Part shown: one piece after another, positions 1-46,934 of the stretch
Numbering within the stretch: position 1 is the stretch's first letter
Layout: every line of letters begins with the position of its first letter
From: a phage
Strand: one strand, 5' to 3'
Assembly: GCA_036253495.1 (NCBI GenBank)
Contig: GCA_036253495.1_4125.1
DNA: 64,000 nt
Made by a program: the position numbers and the translations under genes
The notes under the pieces: model-generated
The model's input: the letters and a program-made list of their open reading frames with translations, nothing else
What the model was told of the DNA's origin: nothing
Database searches by the model: none

Positions 1-110
1 ACCATATAAGGGTAACAGTTATGCACATGAATCCGTTCATAGTAGTAATTGCAATCATTATGGCAGTACAGGCCGTATTAGTTTACTTAAGCAAAGCAGG
101 AGTTATCTAA
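1..110 (+). CDS. 3' end of small hydrophobic protein (open to window edge; possible own start ATG 21)
   Basis: frame open from nt 3; tail NPFIVVIAIIMAVQAVLVYLSKAGVI is one TM-like helix; TAA 108-110. Confidence 0.35.
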   Translation, partial: HIRVTVMHMNPFIVVIAIIMAVQAVLVYLSKAGVI

Positions 111-3744: not shown

Positions 3745-3916
3745 AAAAAAGGGATTGACTCCAGTCAGTCCCTTTGCTATTATATAGTCATTGAGAGATA
3801 ACTCACTGACCCATAGGGTGCATAAGTGTATCTATAATATAAGTATTGTCAGTACTGAAAACTATTTTAAAAAAGTACTTGCATTGTACTTAGAATCAAG
3901 TATAATGTTTTATATC
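3745..3916 (+). repeat. intergenic regulatory module, copy 2 of 3
   Basis: same hairpin/promoter block and second TTGCAT promoter as 441-616. Confidence 0.8.
3751..3783 (+). terminator. hairpin terminator with embedded promoter
   Basis: GGGATTGAC...GTCAGTCCC + TTT; TTGACT 3755-3760, N17, TATTAT 3778-3783. Confidence 0.55.
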
Positions 3917-3958: not shown

Positions 3959-4180
3959 ATGACTACAATGACTTGCATTTACGCTTCCAATCTTCTGAAT
4001 GATGCGGCCTTTAATGTTGATTCAGAATATCAATGTTATCGGGATGAAAATAAAAAAGTTTTTGTAGTTGATAATAATGGTTTCCATATTGAATTGCAAT
4101 CCGGCTTCACTGGCGTTGATGGTAAATCAGTATGGGGCGTACAGGATGATAAAGGTACATATCATTTTAAACGTAATTAA
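3959..4180 (+). CDS. hypothetical protein, 73 aa
   Basis: start re-set from 3791 (track ORF reads through promoter and hairpin); SD AAGGAATAAAATC. Confidence 0.65.
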   Translation: MTTMTCIYASNLLNDAAFNVDSEYQCYRDENKKVFVVDNNGFHIELQSGFTGVDGKSVWGVQDDKGTYHFKRN

Positions 4181-4183
4181 GTA

Positions 4184-4242
4184 TTGACAAAGTATCTTAG
4201 TACTGTATAATAGTTTACATCAAGGGGAGAATAGTTCTCCCC
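4184..4242 (+). promoter_or_regulatory. early promoter + leader hairpin
   Basis: TTGACA 4184-4189, N16, TATAAT 4206-4211; hairpin GGGGAGAA/TTCTCCCC 4224-4242. Confidence 0.75.
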
Positions 4243-4263
4243 GATACTAAAAGGAATAAAATC

Positions 4264-4671
4264 ATGACTACTACTAATCAAGCTCGGTCCATCGCCAACG
4301 ATAAAAATCATGCTGCAATGGTCGCTGGTTACATTGAAGCTATGCAATTCAGTACTGTACACAATGAGAACGGCGAATACCTGGAAGATTATGAATTATC
4401 AGAGCAAGCCCATCAAGCGGCAGTGATTGCATGTTCACGTTTCCTTGCTGTACATGGTGAAGATATGGAAACAGTACAAAAACACCATAATCCTGATTAT
4501 ACTTATAATCATGCAGGTCATGATCTCTTTCTTACTCGCGAAGGTCACGGTACTGGCTTTTGGGATCGTGATATCGGTCACTATGACGATGTATTCACTA
4601 AGTACTGCGAAGAAATCAACGTTTGCGATCCCTATGTAGGCGATGATAATCTAATCTATATGGGCGAATAA
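4264..4671 (+). CDS. hypothetical protein, 135 aa
   Basis: track ORF; SD AAGGAA; His/Gly-rich segment GHDLFLTREGHGTGFWDR; no family named. Confidence 0.75.
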   Translation: MTTTNQARSIANDKNHAAMVAGYIEAMQFSTVHNENGEYLEDYELSEQAHQAAVIACSRFLAVHGEDMETVQKHHNPDYTYNHAGHDLFLTREGHGTGFWDRDIGHYDDVFTKYCEEINVCDPYVGDDNLIYMGE

Positions 4672-4677
4672 AAGTAC

Positions 4678-4736
4678 TTGACAAAGTATATCAGTACTGT
4701 ATAATAGTTTACATCAAGGGGAGAATAGTTCTCCCC
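4678..4736 (+). promoter_or_regulatory. early promoter + leader hairpin
   Basis: TTGACA 4678-4683, N16, TATAAT 4700-4705; hairpin 4718-4736. Confidence 0.75.
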
Positions 4737-4758
4737 ACCAATAAAAGGAAACAACATT

Positions 4759-5031
4759 ATGTCAAGCTACTCCGCTACTATGATCATTAAAGATATGAAC
4801 GGTAATCCTACTTCTGCTGGTGGATCATTTGGAAACATTAACTTAGATGGTCGGTTATCAATGGAATCAGCCATCAATGCAGCGAAAGAAGTTTTTAAGA
4901 ATGAATGTACTGTAAGCAAGCTAGATTATATGGGCTTCGCTATCGAGAAAACTAAACGTTTTGTGGACTACAAAAATCCACTAATGATTGATACTAACCT
5001 GAAAGCTAACGAAGTGGAATACTTATTATGA
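4759..5031 (+). CDS. hypothetical protein, 90 aa
   Basis: track ORF; SD AAGGAA. Confidence 0.7.
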   Translation: MSSYSATMIIKDMNGNPTSAGGSFGNINLDGRLSMESAINAAKEVFKNECTVSKLDYMGFAIEKTKRFVDYKNPLMIDTNLKANEVEYLL

Positions 5032-5219
5032 CAGTTGAAGAAGTTAAAAAAGTACTGGCAGTACTACGCTATCATAATCATTGCAAGGTGAAGAATGATC
5101 CTGATTATGTTGATTCATCCCTGGAGGAAGACACCTTAAACGCGATAAGCCATATGCAAACATTAGCAAAGCGTATGACCGAAAAGAATAGGCCGGACTA
5201 TATCGGAAATAAAATTTAA
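5028..5219 (+). CDS. hypothetical protein, 63 aa
   Basis: ATGA overlap with upstream stop. Confidence 0.6.
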   Translation: MTVEEVKKVLAVLRYHNHCKVKNDPDYVDSSLEEDTLNAISHMQTLAKRMTEKNRPDYIGNKI

Positions 5220-5226
5220 AAAGTAC

Positions 5227-5288
5227 TTGCATTGTAGTTAGATTAAAGTATAATGTTTTATATCGAGAGGGGGAAATGGTTTCCCCTC
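5227..5288 (+). promoter_or_regulatory. early promoter + leader hairpin
   Basis: TTGCAT 5227-5232, N16, TATAAT 5249-5254; hairpin 5267-5288. Confidence 0.7.
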
Positions 5289-5306
5289 AAGTCCAGGAGA
5301 TACACC

Positions 5307-5570
5307 ATGAACACTATCGAAATCACTATTAATGCTCACGTATACGACAACGTAGTACTGCAAACTACTATGACCGCTAACGATACCAGTACTTTGCGGA
5401 ATACTGTTATAAGTGCTGTATGTGCCGCTATCGGTGATGTATCCCTGGAAAATGCAGAACACATCAACAACGGTTTCACTATGTGCAAACGTGATAACGC
5501 AAAACATATCATCGTAGAAGGTTACGGCGGTGTAGAATATAACCTTTATATGAAAAAAGTACTTGCATAG
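5307..5570 (+). CDS. hypothetical protein, 87 aa
   Basis: start re-set from 5253; SD CAGGAGA. Confidence 0.65.
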   Translation: MNTIEITINAHVYDNVVLQTTMTANDTSTLRNTVISAVCAAIGDVSLENAEHINNGFTMCKRDNAKHIIVEGYGGVEYNLYMKKVLA

Positions 5571-5619
5571 TAACTAAAACAAAGTATAATGTTTTGCATA
5601 GGGGGAGATATCCTCCCCC
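5563..5619 (+). promoter_or_regulatory. early promoter + leader hairpin
   Basis: TTGCAT 5563-5568, N16, TATAAT 5585-5590; hairpin GGGGGAG/CTCCCCC 5601-5619. Confidence 0.7.
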
Positions 5620-5638
5620 ACTAATAAGGAGTACTACG

Positions 5639-5863
5639 ATGGCTAATCATGATGAACTGATTCGGGAAGTAGCTAACCTGGCGGCAGAAAAGAAATCATT
5701 TGATTCTATCTATAACACCGCTCACCGTGATTCAGTACTGGCATGTAATCAGGATCAAAAAGATGAACTGATCGCAACCTATCATGAAGCATGGAAGTAT
5801 TACCGTCAATGGGAGAAAGAAGAAAAAGCATCAACCATAAGAGGATTAAATAATCTAGTATAA
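5639..5863 (+). CDS. hypothetical protein, 74 aa
   Basis: start re-set from 5594; SD AAGGAG. Confidence 0.65.
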   Translation: MANHDELIREVANLAAEKKSFDSIYNTAHRDSVLACNQDQKDELIATYHEAWKYYRQWEKEEKASTIRGLNNLV

Positions 5864-5915
5864 CAATAAAAGGGGATGATAATATCCCCTTAATAATTTC
5901 TATAATAGGTTAACA

Positions 5916-6182
5916 ATGAAAAAGAAAACAACATATCGCTATAATAAAAATTATCAATCCGTTGTATTAGATCACTCTATGCTCCCGCTCGTTGTCCCTG
6001 CCGTTGGTGTAGTCTATCAATCCATATACTGGTCAAGGAAACAACAAAAGTACTTAAAAGGCCCACTAGCACGTTATGAGGGTAACGGTGTATGGTCCGA
6101 TCCGTTACATCCAATCACTACGCGTTATATTGAATATTTTCCTTATTGTGACTACATTGAAATACATCCTAAATTTAATTGA
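5916..6182 (+). CDS. hypothetical protein, 88 aa (paralog of 6263..6520)
   Basis: shares LP(L/V)..P..G..Y......Y.GNG.W.DP..PI....DYIE pattern with next gene. Confidence 0.65.
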   Translation: MKKKTTYRYNKNYQSVVLDHSMLPLVVPAVGVVYQSIYWSRKQQKYLKGPLARYEGNGVWSDPLHPITTRYIEYFPYCDYIEIHPKFN

Positions 6183-42829: not shown

Positions 42830-43666
42830 ATGTTCTTAAACTTCAAAGAGTATTCAGTACTTGATCATATCAAGATTCTATCTGAGAATCCTGAAACATT
42901 TGGTGCAGTAAAAACAGCAAATGGAGAATCTTATGATGTTTATAACATTACAGGACATACTGTTTCTGTAAAAAACAATATCCGTCCTTCGACACTAGAT
43001 ATTAATATTCGTAATAATGAAACTTATGAAACTTCACTATCATACGAATATGATTCAGATCTTAAGTCTGAAATATTCAACACACCATCAGTCCATTATT
43101 ACAAGTCAGAAGATACAATTCGTTACCGAGATACCACGATTAATGATATAGTTTTTAATCGTAGAATTAATGCCAGTGGTATAGTTTCAGTTCGTAGTAC
43201 TGATAGATTTGCAAAATATACTGTCGAAAATAATGTACGATCATTTGAAACAACTTTCCGTCTAACACAAGGTACAGAAGAAAGCAACATCACACTCCAA
43301 GAACGTTTGTCATCAGACGGGATTATTATGCGTAGTGTTGCTTTTTTCAGATATAACACCGAAGATGGGCGTCCAGTGATGTGTGATTTGGATATCACTC
43401 GTACAGGTGATAAAACAATTGCCACTATAACCTCTGGATACCGACATTCGTTTACATTAGAACTGGATGTACCTGATGCATCATTACTTGGTATTTTTGA
43501 TCCGCTGGCAGCATTTCAAGCAGAGTTAGTACTGAACCCTAAGCAGTACGAGATTCTTGATATCTTACGTAAAGGCATAGTTAATAAGTTGAAAACTTAC
43601 CAACAGTTAGGTGGTAAGATGAGTATAGTTAATACTATTCTCGAAAATATTGAAAGAGTAAGTTAA
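42830..43666 (+). CDS. family B-like long paralog B49, 278 aa
   Basis: motif PLAAFQAELVLN about 45 aa from C-terminus; enlarged N-terminal part. Confidence 0.6.
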   Translation: MFLNFKEYSVLDHIKILSENPETFGAVKTANGESYDVYNITGHTVSVKNNIRPSTLDINIRNNETYETSLSYEYDSDLKSEIFNTPSVHYYKSEDTIRYRDTTINDIVFNRRINASGIVSVRSTDRFAKYTVENNVRSFETTFRLTQGTEESNITLQERLSSDGIIMRSVAFFRYNTEDGRPVMCDLDITRTGDKTIATITSGYRHSFTLELDVPDASLLGIFDPLAAFQAELVLNPKQYEILDILRKGIVNKLKTYQQLGGKMSIVNTILENIERVS

Positions 43667-44859: not shown

Positions 44860-45699
44860 ATGAAATTAAATTTTATTATCAACTTTAATGTTAAAGAAAC
44901 CGATCATTACGCATCAGAAGATGACCGTGTTGCACCAGCTTCGTCTGAATACATCAGAAATGAAAATGTCCATATGCATGAAAATTATTTCGACTTTGGT
45001 AATTTTATTATCTACCGTGGATTTAAGGATGTTGTATTCCGTTCCAGATATGAAGACTTTGAACATGCACTCATTGATGTACCAGATGAATTAGTATTCC
45101 AGTTCATGTTACTTGGTATTAAAGATTATGACTTTATAGTTTATAACCATTATACTAAGCGTATTATGATTGGTAATGATTCATATGATCTTACTTATTA
45201 TTCCAGTACTGATGAAGATTTAGAAAATATTAAACGCCGTTCTGGTGGTATACGTAATTGTTCATCTTCAAACTCCAGTAGAATGAGTGAAAGGTTTTTT
45301 GATTTCAAAAATAGCAATAATAACGACTGTGAAGACGCGGACAATACTGAACATGTAATGTTTGAAATTGACCACAATAATGGATATAATGACTTCCTTA
45401 ATGTTCTGAAGCCTTATATCAATCATAAATTCATCAAAGATGTAAATCTGGTAGCTCGTGACTTACAGTACAGTGATCGTACTGGTGGTATGCCTGTACC
45501 AATGGATCGTGTATGTACGAACAATACAGTGTTTAATGTACCACGAGAAGATGTTGCATTTGTATTTCTGGCATTTTTGAATTCAGATGCACTATGGGAC
45601 GATAATGAAAGACAATTTAGTTCAAGACATATTGAAATAATTCGTCAAAATACATTACTACTGTGGAAGAAATTTACTGAAAATACCCAGGACAAATAA
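44860..45699 (+). CDS. family B-like protein B50 with long C-terminal extension, 279 aa
   Basis: PDELVFQFMLLG in the N-terminal third; remainder unrelated. Confidence 0.55.
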   Translation: MKLNFIINFNVKETDHYASEDDRVAPASSEYIRNENVHMHENYFDFGNFIIYRGFKDVVFRSRYEDFEHALIDVPDELVFQFMLLGIKDYDFIVYNHYTKRIMIGNDSYDLTYYSSTDEDLENIKRRSGGIRNCSSSNSSRMSERFFDFKNSNNNDCEDADNTEHVMFEIDHNNGYNDFLNVLKPYINHKFIKDVNLVARDLQYSDRTGGMPVPMDRVCTNNTVFNVPREDVAFVFLAFLNSDALWDDNERQFSSRHIEIIRQNTLLLWKKFTENTQDK

Positions 45700-45716
45700 A
45701 TTCTTGGTGATATAAT
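45689..45716 (+). promoter_or_regulatory. candidate extended -10 promoter
   Basis: AGGACA 45689-45694, N16, TGaTATAAT (TATAAT 45711-45716); GGTGAT could alternatively be an SD for mini-ORF 45715..45780. Confidence 0.35.
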
Positions 45717-45719
45717 GAT

Positions 45720-45752
45720 GAGTGGCAATATATCTTTGTCACTCTTTTTTTT
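45720..45752 (+). terminator. rho-independent terminator
   Basis: GAGTGGCAA/TTGTCACTC stem (one G-U) followed by T8. Confidence 0.7.
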
Positions 45753-46391
45753 AATCCTGAAAGGTTCCATATGGAAATGATTAAGAGCCTAATCCACTCG
45801 AAAATGTAGAGGGTAGATGAGTAGTCCTTTCAGTACGAACAGCAGATGAAACCCGTCAGATGTGGGCATATTATGAACCCCTCACGGCAATGCGGCTGTA
45901 TAAAGAACTCCGATAAGCACACAGAGAGTTCCTAGATAGACATATAAGGATCGCACCTTACCAGATTTGCTAAGGGAGATTTCATTAGAAATTGCGGTCA
46001 ACTATTTGTACAAGATAGTTGCGTCCAAAATTTGGTGAAATCAAATACCAGTACTGTTCATATGGTACTCGTATTATGTGTCGGGATGTTTAAGACCGAC
46101 GACCGTTGCTACAAGAACCGCGATAGAGAGAAACAGAGCAACCCGCTTTCGCCTCGTTAAGAGAATTCGTGATATGAAATATGTGAAGACCACCAGCGTC
46201 AAATTTTAATTCTTTCCCCCAGTGGGGGGATGAAATATGCTCTTCCAAACCTCGTCAATATTAATTAAAACCATTTAGTACTATTAGAATTATTCAGAGC
46301 GTAGCGATGAATTAATTCTACTGATGTTGATTGAGTGCTAACGAAATCAATATCGAGTACATTATTTGATGTTTCCTAAAAAGGAATAATA
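45753..46391 (+). ncRNA. ORF-free, G+C-richer segment: candidate structured RNA or other non-coding element (class unknown)
   Basis: no ORF of 60 codons or more on either strand over about 640 bp in an otherwise saturated window; several local stems; strand assumed from context. Confidence 0.3.
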
Positions 46392-46934
46392 ATGCCTGTA
46401 TTTTCAAAGAACAAAACAACAGAGATCATTTATAAATCAAAAGAATTTGAAGTACTAGAAGAATTTGATAGAGATTCATTTGATGGATATAAAATAGTAA
46501 AAGAAAAAGGAACTATCAATCATATTGTTGAGTACATGGGAGGTGTAGAACTAGCAAAAATCACTTGTAGACCTACAAAAAACCCAGTAATTTTTTCTGT
46601 TCGCTATGGACATTACGGAGAAGAGCGATATAATTCTAATACAGTATCAAGGAAATTCCATGTTGTAGATGGGAAATTAGAAGGGGAATCCAGACAATAT
46701 AGTGTTCTTGGACTTCCTTTGTCAGTGAAGTACTTCCATCAAGGACATGATGTTACTATTGAAATTATGGATTTTATTGGGTTCAATGGTACAGTAGATG
46801 ACTTCAACTTCTATGTATTAGCAGAAGATGAAGCATTCAATATAATGATGAAGTACGGTTCTAGATTTAAATTTTTATATGAGTACAACCTGGACAGTAA
46901 ACTGTTCGATAATATCTTACAGAACTGTCTATAA
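46392..46934 (+). CDS. hypothetical protein, 180 aa
   Basis: track ORF; SD AAAGGAA; weak repeat-like G.LEGE...Y segments, not assigned. Confidence 0.7.
   Translation: MPVFSKNKTTEIIYKSKEFEVLEEFDRDSFDGYKIVKEKGTINHIVEYMGGVELAKITCRPTKNPVIFSVRYGHYGEERYNSNTVSRKFHVVDGKLEGESRQYSVLGLPLSVKYFHQGHDVTIEIMDFIGFNGTVDDFNFYVLAEDEAFNIMMKYGSRFKFLYEYNLDSKLFDNILQNCL

Follow-up and report, generated by a model that had tools for sequence, protein, structure and literature searches.

A gene for a large structured non-coding RNA in a gene-free stretch of a Rak2-like jumbo phage

We wanted to establish what a densely coding phage genome keeps in a long stretch that carries no gene. The DNA analysed here (64,000 nucleotides (nt), further called the window; feature positions are given on its plus strand) contains at 45700-46391 a gap of 692 bp without any open reading frame (ORF) of at least 60 codons on either strand. 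It is the longest such gap in the window, the runner-up (333-754) measuring 422 bp, and ORFs of this size occupy 94% of the window. The original prediction, made from the sequence alone, had pointed to 45753-46391 as the sole long ORF-free stretch and as an island richer in guanine and cytosine (G+C). Both observations held. The G+C content was 39.3% in 45753-46391 and 42.5% in the core of the element (45786-46265), compared with 34.1% in the whole window, and the value for the core ranked between the 95th and 99th percentile among 480-nt windows. We found that the stretch is the gene for a stand-alone, highly structured non-coding RNA (ncRNA) of approximately 0.5-0.65 kb, which belongs to a strongly supported family. 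A large structured phage ncRNA had been the leading option of the prediction; a conserved promoter of its own and a strand-specific fold with massive compensatory change speak for it.

In a blastn search of 50,697 phage records, the region with its 100-base flanks (45600-46500) was 99.8% identical to Escherichia phage A4 (ON286972.1), and the ORF-free part (45715-46385) was 99.7% identical. Phage A4 (355.5 kb) belongs to the genus Asteriusvirus, in the 121Q/PBECO4 group of Rak2-like jumbo phages. A window position corresponds approximately to the A4 position minus 19383.

Conservation and fold of the RNA

Homologues were collected by scanning a conserved 22-nt pattern over the IMG/VR, metagenome and species-representative genome collections. 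An nhmmer profile obtained from the first matches separated true copies from chance matches to the pattern; a looser pattern (GACCGT...TAG..AGAAAC) gave mostly chance matches. True copies had E values from 1e-23 to 1e-133, the full-length ones that we used had E <= 1e-80, and 72 distinct full-length sequences were obtained. The window matched the family profile at 45750-46264 (nhmmer, E = 2e-121), and approximately 100 homologues matched across that span.

The helix set comes from a purpose-made covariation scan of the 72 sequences in an L-INS-i alignment; RNAalifold by itself gave an incomplete fold model. Pairs were counted on an alignment of 48 sequences, each less than 93% identical to the others. 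The model comprises 86 pairs, arranged in 16 helices, and was derived from the very sequences on which the pairs were counted. Canonical pairs filled 95.8% of 4000 cells (slid controls 38-44%, shuffles 77.0 +/- 0.4%), and 66 of the 86 pairs changed on both sides (25-36 and 47.4 +/- 2.4, respectively). There were 748 compensatory cells, while slid controls gave 72-117 and shuffles 199 +/- 14, none of 500 shuffles reaching 748. The covariation score was 0.525 (slid controls 0.06-0.10, shuffles 0.183 +/- 0.005). The fraction of paired cells is inflated, because the structure came from the same sequences, but two-sided changes exceed those of the slid controls by far more than such inflation can explain. 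A scan of the unpaired columns for further helices found none.

The original prediction had suggested looking for covariation in relatives and folding the region against shuffled controls. The former gave the excess of compensatory cells described above. In the latter, the plus strand gave a better fold than its shuffles did (z = -2.95), and for the minus strand the difference was not clear (z = -1.29). We take the plus strand as the folding strand, because its frequent G-U pairs would be C-A mismatches on the minus strand. These results show that the plus-strand RNA is under selection for its fold, which comprises at least 16 helices, three of them long-range or pseudoknot pairings (Table 1).

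Table 1. Features of the RNA gene in the window and positions of its copies in phage A4. Paired fractions and pairs that change on both sides were counted on the 48-sequence alignment.
Feature	Position	Strand	Description
Predicted promoter	45689-45716	+	-35-like AGGACA 45689-94, TG 45708-09, TATAAT 45711-16, 16-nt spacing
Terminator hairpin	45720-45752	+	9 pairs (45720-44) then T8; terminator scan
5' leader	45753-45785	+	conserved AAUCCUG 45753-59; variable hairpin H0 45765-68/45773-76
Conserved RNA core	45786-46265	+	covers most of the family profile
H1	45789-91, 94-95, 97-99 with 45809-16	+	conserved loop GAAAAUGUA; 7/8 pairs change both sides
H2	45821-23, 25 with 45832, 34-36	+	after linker AUGA; 3/4 pairs change both sides
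H3	45839-43/45895-99	+	100% paired; 3/5 pairs change both sides; encloses H4 and a variable hairpin
H4	45853-56/45884-87	+	inside H3; 100% paired; 2/4 pairs change both sides
PK-A	AUG 45890-92 with CAU 45941-43	+	crosses H3, encloses H5; 100% paired
H5	45905-10/45926-31	+	within PK-A; 6/6 pairs change both sides
H6	45945-49/45956-60	+	covariation model
Single-stranded UAAGGGAG	45971-78	+	invariant; AAGGGA identical in 48/48 sequences
H7	45978-82/46038-42	+	closes variable peripheral domain; 5/5 pairs change both sides
H8	46044-55/46064-75	+	12-pair hairpin; 12/12 change both sides, 96% of cells paired; loop UCAUAU 46058-63
PK-B	UCAUAU 46058-63 with AUAUGA 46172-77	+	H8 loop to distant strand; 100% paired, 6/6 change both sides
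H9	46080-84/46096-46100	+	GTCGG/CCGAC; 5/5 pairs change both sides
PK-C	GUUGC 46105-09 with GCAAC 46138-42	+	100% paired; H-type pseudoknot with H12
H11	46119-23/46167-71	+	98% paired; 5/5 pairs change both sides
H12	46126-30/46146-50	+	GAGAG/CUUUC; 100% paired
H13	46153-55/46161-63	+	96% paired
3' conserved block	46190-46265	+	CCAGCGUCAA box 46193-46202, H14, CAAACCUCGUCAAUAUUAA box 46246-64
H14	46215-19/46225-29	+	with G-run 46224-29; 5' arm shows C-to-U changes only
Tail hairpin T1	46285-96/46308-20	+	loop GAGCGUAGCGA
Tail hairpin T2	46327-32/46345-50	+	loop includes UAACGA
Small hairpin UUCCU/AGGAA	46373-77/46382-86, within 46373-46391	+	carries ribosome-binding site of gene 46392; sequence reading
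Copy c1	window 45700-46391 (~65 kb in A4)	+	element under study
Copy c2	A4 ~125721-126310	+	in a gap free of coding sequences
Copy c3	A4 ~205587-206122	+	flanked by two opposite-strand genes
Copy c4	A4 ~320967-321452	+	follows sigma-70-family gene

The best-conserved part of the RNA is the H-type pseudoknot region (46105-46171). Many of the segments that join the helices are invariant in the 48-sequence alignment (for example GAAAAUGUA, GAUGAG, AAACCCGU, UAAGGGAG, GACCGU and AGAAAC), and invariant joining regions are typical of RNAs with a tertiary fold. PK-A is realized among homologues as AUG/CAU, ACA/UGU or AUA/UAU. The distal strand of PK-B abuts the 3' strand of H11. We dropped the idea that each paralogue has a private 6-nt PK-B code, since two copies in Serratia phage BF both carry UUGUAU.

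Other parts are less constant. The peripheral domain inside H7 carries the module UUUGUACAAGAUAGUUGCGUCCAAAAUU, which includes the hairpin 45999-46021 and is present, absent or relocated into H13, depending on the copy. Some bacterial copies have no 5' leader, and their -10 box sits just 5' of H1. Most copies have an extra domain of approximately 100 nt 3' of the core, with hairpin loops ACG(A/U)AG; T1 and T2 (46285-46350) are its divergent counterpart in the window, and both hairpins are kept in the 121Q orthologue with different inner-stem sequences. In the 3' block, G46225-28 of the G-run are identical in 48/48 sequences. We also observed that the 3' box (46246-46264 and its counterparts), CGUCAGUAUAAAU, resembles in many copies a T4-type late promoter, TATAAATA; the window copy reads CGUCAAUAUUAAU. 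Phage A4 encodes a late sigma factor (A4_588).

Several helices that had been proposed from the single sequence found their place in this model. The palindrome TTCCATATGGAA (45765-76) is H0, in which 4/4 pairs covary. GTCGG/CCGAC is H9, GTTGCT/AGCAAC proved to be the pseudoknot helix PK-C, and CCCCC/GGGGG is H14, in which the changes fall on one arm only. The AT-rich helix at 46285-46320 retains its pairing in the 121Q orthologue despite a different inner stem. The hairpin CAACTAT/ATAGTTG (45999-46021) could be followed in part: GAP32 has GGAUU/GAUCC at the equivalent position, in an alignment too poor to count pairs.

The region did not behave as coding DNA. Compared with the 121Q orthologue, mismatches fell on the three codon positions 15, 18 and 13 times (no codon periodicity), the indels had lengths of 1, 1, 1, 1, 2, 3, 1 and 1, and substitutions numbered 4/172 in paired columns versus 42/353 otherwise. 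Ten ORFs of 26-52 codons overlap the region, and seven of them were scanned against Pfam and PHROGs. None reached the threshold in Pfam, and the PHROG scan gave a single 19-residue match (E ~1e-3) to a PHROG without function; these ORFs are not credible genes. Up to six short "hypothetical proteins" are annotated across the RNA gene in several GenBank records (e.g. PQ390715.1, OR699188.1, PP886230.1, LT960551.1), and one deposited genome has ribosome-binding sites annotated across it as well. These proteins are probably false gene calls.

Searches with known RNA models were negative. Rfam, applied to the whole window at gathering thresholds and to 45600-46500 at E up to 10, returned only noise (sRNA71, snoRNAs), the sRNA71 "match" being just the terminator hairpin. 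Six bacterial loci with homologues likewise gave no Rfam match. There was no match to RNase P RNA, transfer-messenger RNA (tmRNA), 6S RNA, HEARO/omega RNA or the group II intron models, and none to the group I intron (RF00028). The helix pair PK-C/H12 is unlike a group I core, since neither a P8 hairpin nor a P4-P6 domain separates its strands. ARAGORN found no tRNA gene and no tmRNA gene in the 64-kb window. Thus the earlier statement that signatures of tRNA, tmRNA and RNase P are missing stands. We rejected a hammerhead reading of CAGAUGAG...GAA, in which CAGAUGA, H2 and GAA (~45813-45839) resemble the hammerhead core of CUGANGA, stem II and GAAA. Position 4 is A instead of U, Rfam gives no match, and the covariation rules the reading out: the equivalent of A14/A15.1 is a covarying pair (A-U 29, U-A 18; columns 116/221) and not an unpaired A14.

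An intron is rejected because both flanking genes are complete, in agreement with the earlier view that no split gene surrounds the element. The upstream gene (44860-45699) matches phrog_15199, which has no function assigned, over profile positions 1-262 of 263, and the downstream gene (46392-46934) matches phrog_16210 over positions 14-189 of 191. The upstream gene and the one at 42830-43666 are tandem paralogues (279 and 278 codons, respectively), each with a small HNH endonuclease gene upstream.

Copies in jumbo phages and enterobacterial islands

The non-coding stretch was found by blastn in 71 of the 50,697 phage records, and every one of the 71 is a jumbo phage (310-386 kb). Identity to the window stretch was approximately 87% within Asteriusvirus and approximately 66-74% in GAP32, Serratia phage BF, Yersinia phage fHe-Yen9-04, Salmonella phages 7t3 and Munch, and in Erwinia, Xanthomonas and Klebsiella phages. 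Among the matches listed, each record had 4 or 5 separate element sites. The whole A4 genome carries four copies. They share the plus strand, and each lies in a gap of 650-900 bp free of coding sequences (CDS); the window holds no second copy, the other three lying outside it. Where they align, they are 73-79% identical to the window copy, and near-invariant blocks alternate with variable, indel-rich stretches. Gene orientation switches close to copy c3, and this copy has a bidirectional terminator at its end. A group of more remote relatives, carried on contigs of other large myoviruses, retains only the 3' half of the RNA. Phages of the Rak2-like group carry T4-like replication genes.

Further, true copies are present in bacteria (E ~1e-84 to 1e-99). 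The carriers are chromosomal contigs of Citrobacter amalonaticus, Enterobacter chinensis, Silvania hatchlandensis, Serratia fonticola, Serratia sp. and an Enterobacteriaceae isolate, together with metagenome-assembled genomes of Buttiauxella sp. and an uncultured Enterobacteriaceae bacterium, and a 2.8-kb contig binned as Clostridium sp. UBA10317. In E. coli the element occurred in 2 of 5,426 complete genomes, and the plasmid collection contained no copy. When an island copy was used as the query against the phage collection, it retrieved the same ~70 jumbo phages only.

In bacteria the RNA gene is a single copy per small island with integrase, cI and ner genes. In most islands it lies on the same strand as, and 3' of, the integrase gene (a large serine recombinase or a tyrosine integrase) and converges on a cI-like S24 repressor gene, beyond which lie a Ner-like gene and envelope proteins. 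At the Serratia fonticola locus it is opposite in strand to a serine recombinase gene and to two genes for ParB-like proteins. The Citrobacter and Enterobacter islands include ones at ppdD. We saw no genes for replication or packaging in the approximately 8 kb examined per island. When the island ORFs were compared with the A4 genome by tblastn, the matches were confined to the RNA region and a single DUF4326 protein. In a distance tree the island copies occupy three or more separate positions among the phage copies, and therefore we conclude that the element has been exchanged repeatedly.

One island was read in E. coli LR-29-1 (NZ_AP027515.1, 3470143-3488512), where it lies downstream of ffs, between ffs and ybaA. 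It contains DUF4326, DUF488 and dual-OB-domain genes and a resolvase, and its integrase is interrupted by an IS3 element. The RefSeq annotation of this strain leaves the RNA locus blank.

Some other features of the A4 genome are recorded here. The palindrome CAGTACTG has 55 sites in the window (e.g. 131-138, 3850-3857, 46049-46056), with 0.87 expected. In A4, AGTACT occurs 929 times (120 expected) and the palindrome 225 times (3.7 expected); the palindrome is densest in A4 1-25 kb. Both coding and non-coding DNA contain it, and its sites are also found in the spacers separating the -35 and -10 boxes of promoter-like sites and within stems of hairpins in the RNA family. The palindrome may be bound by a protein or serve as a modification site. 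A 2-kb CDS-free region (A4 4139-6138) is dense in CAGTACTGA repeats and promoter-like sites, has a tandem-repeat block of GGCTAGAYGG-like units, and may represent an end of the genome, a replication origin or a stretch with regulatory function. The large terminase subunit (A4 230273-232584) is annotated as two CDS 275 bp apart, which may reflect an intron or a frameshift.

Transcript limits and possible role

The signals upstream of the element show a predicted promoter that belongs to the RNA gene itself; it has an extended -10 box and is of the type read by host sigma-70. An extended -10 promoter had already been proposed at 45689-45716. It proved to be the top-scoring sigma-70-like site of the region, with 10/12 matches plus the extended -10 TG, and it overlaps the stop codon (45697-99) of the upstream gene. 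A TGnTATAAT-like box is found 52-100 nt 5' of the H1 loop in 31/35 phage copies. The hairpin at 45720-45752 we read as the intrinsic terminator of the upstream gene. A hairpin with a T-run also follows the -10 box in the copy-1 orthologues of 121Q, GAP32, fHe-Yen9-04 and XbC2, and the GAP32 record annotates it as a terminator. Because the hairpin (45720) directly follows the -10 box (ending at 45716), the expected start, ~45722-24, lies inside its 5' arm. A promoter nested with a full intrinsic terminator (45689-45752) is a layout kept in copy-1 orthologues of other genera.

At the other end, terminators follow the 3' tail in some copies of the family, and 17/36 copies have a hairpin with a T-run between the first CGUCA box and H14, which is missing from the window copy. 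The terminator scan found no terminator between the RNA gene and gene 46392. The whole transcript is probably ~630 nt long, from ~45723 to ~46355, with a conserved core of ~480 nt.

Our preferred explanation, which could with equal ease prove right or wrong, is that the element yields a folded RNA made early, which acts in trans on a host component, its several copies serving dosage. Host RNA polymerase would transcribe it early in infection. The RNA would then work as a folded particle, which could be a ribozyme, could assemble with itself, or could act as a scaffold, sponge or mimic, and several copies per genome would raise the dose. The partner is probably a host component, because phage and island share the host, yet (in ~8 kb per island) only one DUF4326 protein. 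The four A4 copies sit in differing gene contexts, as is expected of an RNA independent of its neighbours. Action in trans is in line with a ribozyme-like architecture whose junctions are invariant, with internal terminators that would delimit a discrete RNA, and with the absence of a protein shared by the two settings. The conserved pseudoknot core may represent a new class of large ribozyme or self-assembling RNA.

Several points weigh against action in trans. We infer the ends and the abundance of the RNA as well as its host partner and activity. The retention of 4-5 scattered copies per genome in different genera fits a position-dependent role, in cis, at least as well as dosage. The 3' block (the G-run and CGUCA boxes) is conserved without covariation and could be a signal at the level of DNA. 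Finally, the window copy has no terminator before gene 46392 and carries a terminator-like hairpin directly after its promoter.

A role in cis that we regard as possible but doubtful is that of an RNA-primed origin, at which the structured transcript would form a lasting RNA-DNA hybrid near the G-run 46224-29 and prime leading-strand synthesis. With the same reserve, the 4-5 copies would be multiple origins of the ~350-kb genome, and the small chromosomal islands, of an SOS type, would have copied the element more than once in acts of origin piracy. Equally tentative is the further step, in which an infecting jumbo phage would replicate, package and transduce the islands, a satellite parasitism exerted through the RNA fold. 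The arrangement of the copies is consistent with such origins: they are dispersed (~65, 126, 206 and 321 kb in A4), and every copy has a promoter to itself; the conserved extended -10 box 5' of the copies would give a promoter-driven transcript; and copy c3 is near the switch of gene orientation. So is the 3' block, as G46225-28 are invariant, H14 varies on one side only, and the sequence 3' of the G-run is AT-rich and conserved without covariation. In ColE1 RNA II, hybrid formation needs a G-rich segment ~555 nt from the RNA start; the G-run here lies ~505 nt from the expected start. Kreuzer and Alberts reportedly found in 1985-86 that plasmids with T4 origins replicate and are transduced after T4 infection. 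The islands (~8 kb each) show an integrase, a cI-like S24 repressor, Ner-like and envelope proteins and no replication or packaging genes, and their copies are polyphyletic among the phage copies, as expected if islands must match their helper. In Pseudomonas, jumbo phages transduce integrase-bearing islands of a broadly similar kind, which are their satellites (PMC12595487); for the present islands, satellite status is a conjecture.

Other evidence speaks against an origin. It is not obvious why a primer RNA should need a multi-pseudoknot fold of 480 nt whose junctions are invariant. The hairpin with a T-run stands just upstream of the G-run in 17/36 copies, even if the window copy is without it. 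Cumulative GC skew of the A4 genome tracks gene orientation only and marks no origins, and the element is on no plasmid in the collection searched.

We consider it improbable that the RNA is a cis-regulatory 5' leader, riboswitch-like or an attenuator, of gene 46392 and its operon. The lack of a terminator before this gene, the small hairpin that carries its ribosome-binding site, and a downstream gene (phrog_16210) that is apparently the same in copy-1 orthologues of other genera would agree with such a leader. However, unrelated genes follow the four paralogues, copy c3 faces opposite-strand genes and ends at a bidirectional terminator, and the island copies run toward the convergent cI-like gene; moreover, half of the copies have the internal terminator-like hairpin, and 500-650 nt is far above the size of known leaders. 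A decayed protein gene, which the original prediction had kept as an option, or a group I or group II intron has hardly any probability left: 692 bp without ORFs inside a dense genome and homing (HNH) endonuclease genes 1-3 kb upstream might suggest one, but codon periodicity is absent, the indels break the frame, the internal ORFs match no protein family, ~70% conservation across genera is unexpected for a decaying gene, no Rfam intron family matches at E up to 10, the flanking genes are complete, and coding cannot account for the covariation of the RNA.

Comparison with known systems

The family is absent from Rfam 15, and we found no description of it in the full-text literature searched. 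It is a previously undescribed and unannotated family of large structured RNAs. To our knowledge, large bacterial or phage RNAs with complex conserved folds are rare. Those that are understood are either catalysts or central machines of the cell, namely RNase P, self-splicing introns, tmRNA and the guide RNAs of mobile nucleases, or else highly unusual objects, the cages formed by ROOL and GOLLD. We know of no other large phage RNA that has diverged paralogues within one genome and has been repeatedly exchanged with host islands.

These results add a new RNA family, with very strong covariation support, to a well-sampled and therapy-relevant group of coliphages, and correct the annotation of the many GenBank records that put "hypothetical proteins" over these genes. 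They also offer a handle on how Rak2-group jumbo phages start infection or replication, and on whether enterobacterial islands exploit these phages.

In its general layout only, the element resembles ColE1 RNA II and the T4 R-loop origins ori(uvsY) and ori(34), which like it have a promoter-driven transcript and would need no initiator protein encoded by the element. ColE1 RNA II is a structured RNA of ~500 nt that ends near a G-rich segment and is transcribed from its promoter by host RNA polymerase; the T4 origins are several per genome and use host-polymerase transcripts. Neither has a comparable multi-pseudoknot core. The T4 origins share no sequence with one another, unlike the copies described here. 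Half of our copies carry a terminator-like hairpin before the G-run, unlike ColE1 and T4, and both the hybrid and a start of DNA synthesis are here a conjecture.

The phi29 pRNA is also a phage-encoded structured RNA with covarying loop-loop pairing. It differs from the present RNA in being 174 nt long, single-copy and unrelated in sequence, and nothing links our RNA to packaging.

Phage PA5oct, a jumbo phage described as related to the Rak2 group, has RNA-sequencing-supported, ORF-free long ncRNAs of 236-619 nt (ncRNA001-004; PMC7318152). Compared with the family profile, they gave a best E value of 0.056 over 44 nt and lacked the core motifs, so that homology is not demonstrable. In ncRNA004 (MK797984, 246116-246734) we noted a hairpin CUUUCAG-UAUAGAUUCCGU-...CUGAAAG, a CCC/GGGG hairpin and a long 3' hairpin with a ACGAAAACGAA loop. 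These pieces are reminiscent of our RNA with its peripheral module, G-hairpin and ACGAA loops, but gave no significant match.

A parallel in size, complexity and carriers is offered by ROOL and GOLLD, large phage and prophage RNAs that form RNA cages (bioRxiv 10.1101/2024.12.08.627333). The present RNA is not a member of either family, because the covariance models of both fail. ROOL (RF03087) gave no match in the window, in 45600-46500 at E up to 10, or in six bacterial homologue loci, and GOLLD (RF01998) gave no Rfam match; neither the sequence nor the structure fits their models. ROOL and GOLLD belong to Firmicutes and relatives, whereas our RNA is found with hosts among Proteobacteria. The 64-kb window has no tRNA gene, the usual neighbour of GOLLD in phages; the RNA is present as 4-5 diverged paralogues per genome and not as one copy, and, unlike ROOL and GOLLD, it has copies in integrase/cI/ner islands as well. 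In other respects the three are alike, as all are stand-alone ncRNAs of 500-800 nt of phages or mobile DNA, built of helices, pseudoknots and conserved junctions. The loop-to-strand pairing PK-B could form within one molecule or between molecules, and it is the latter that the ROOL and GOLLD cages use.

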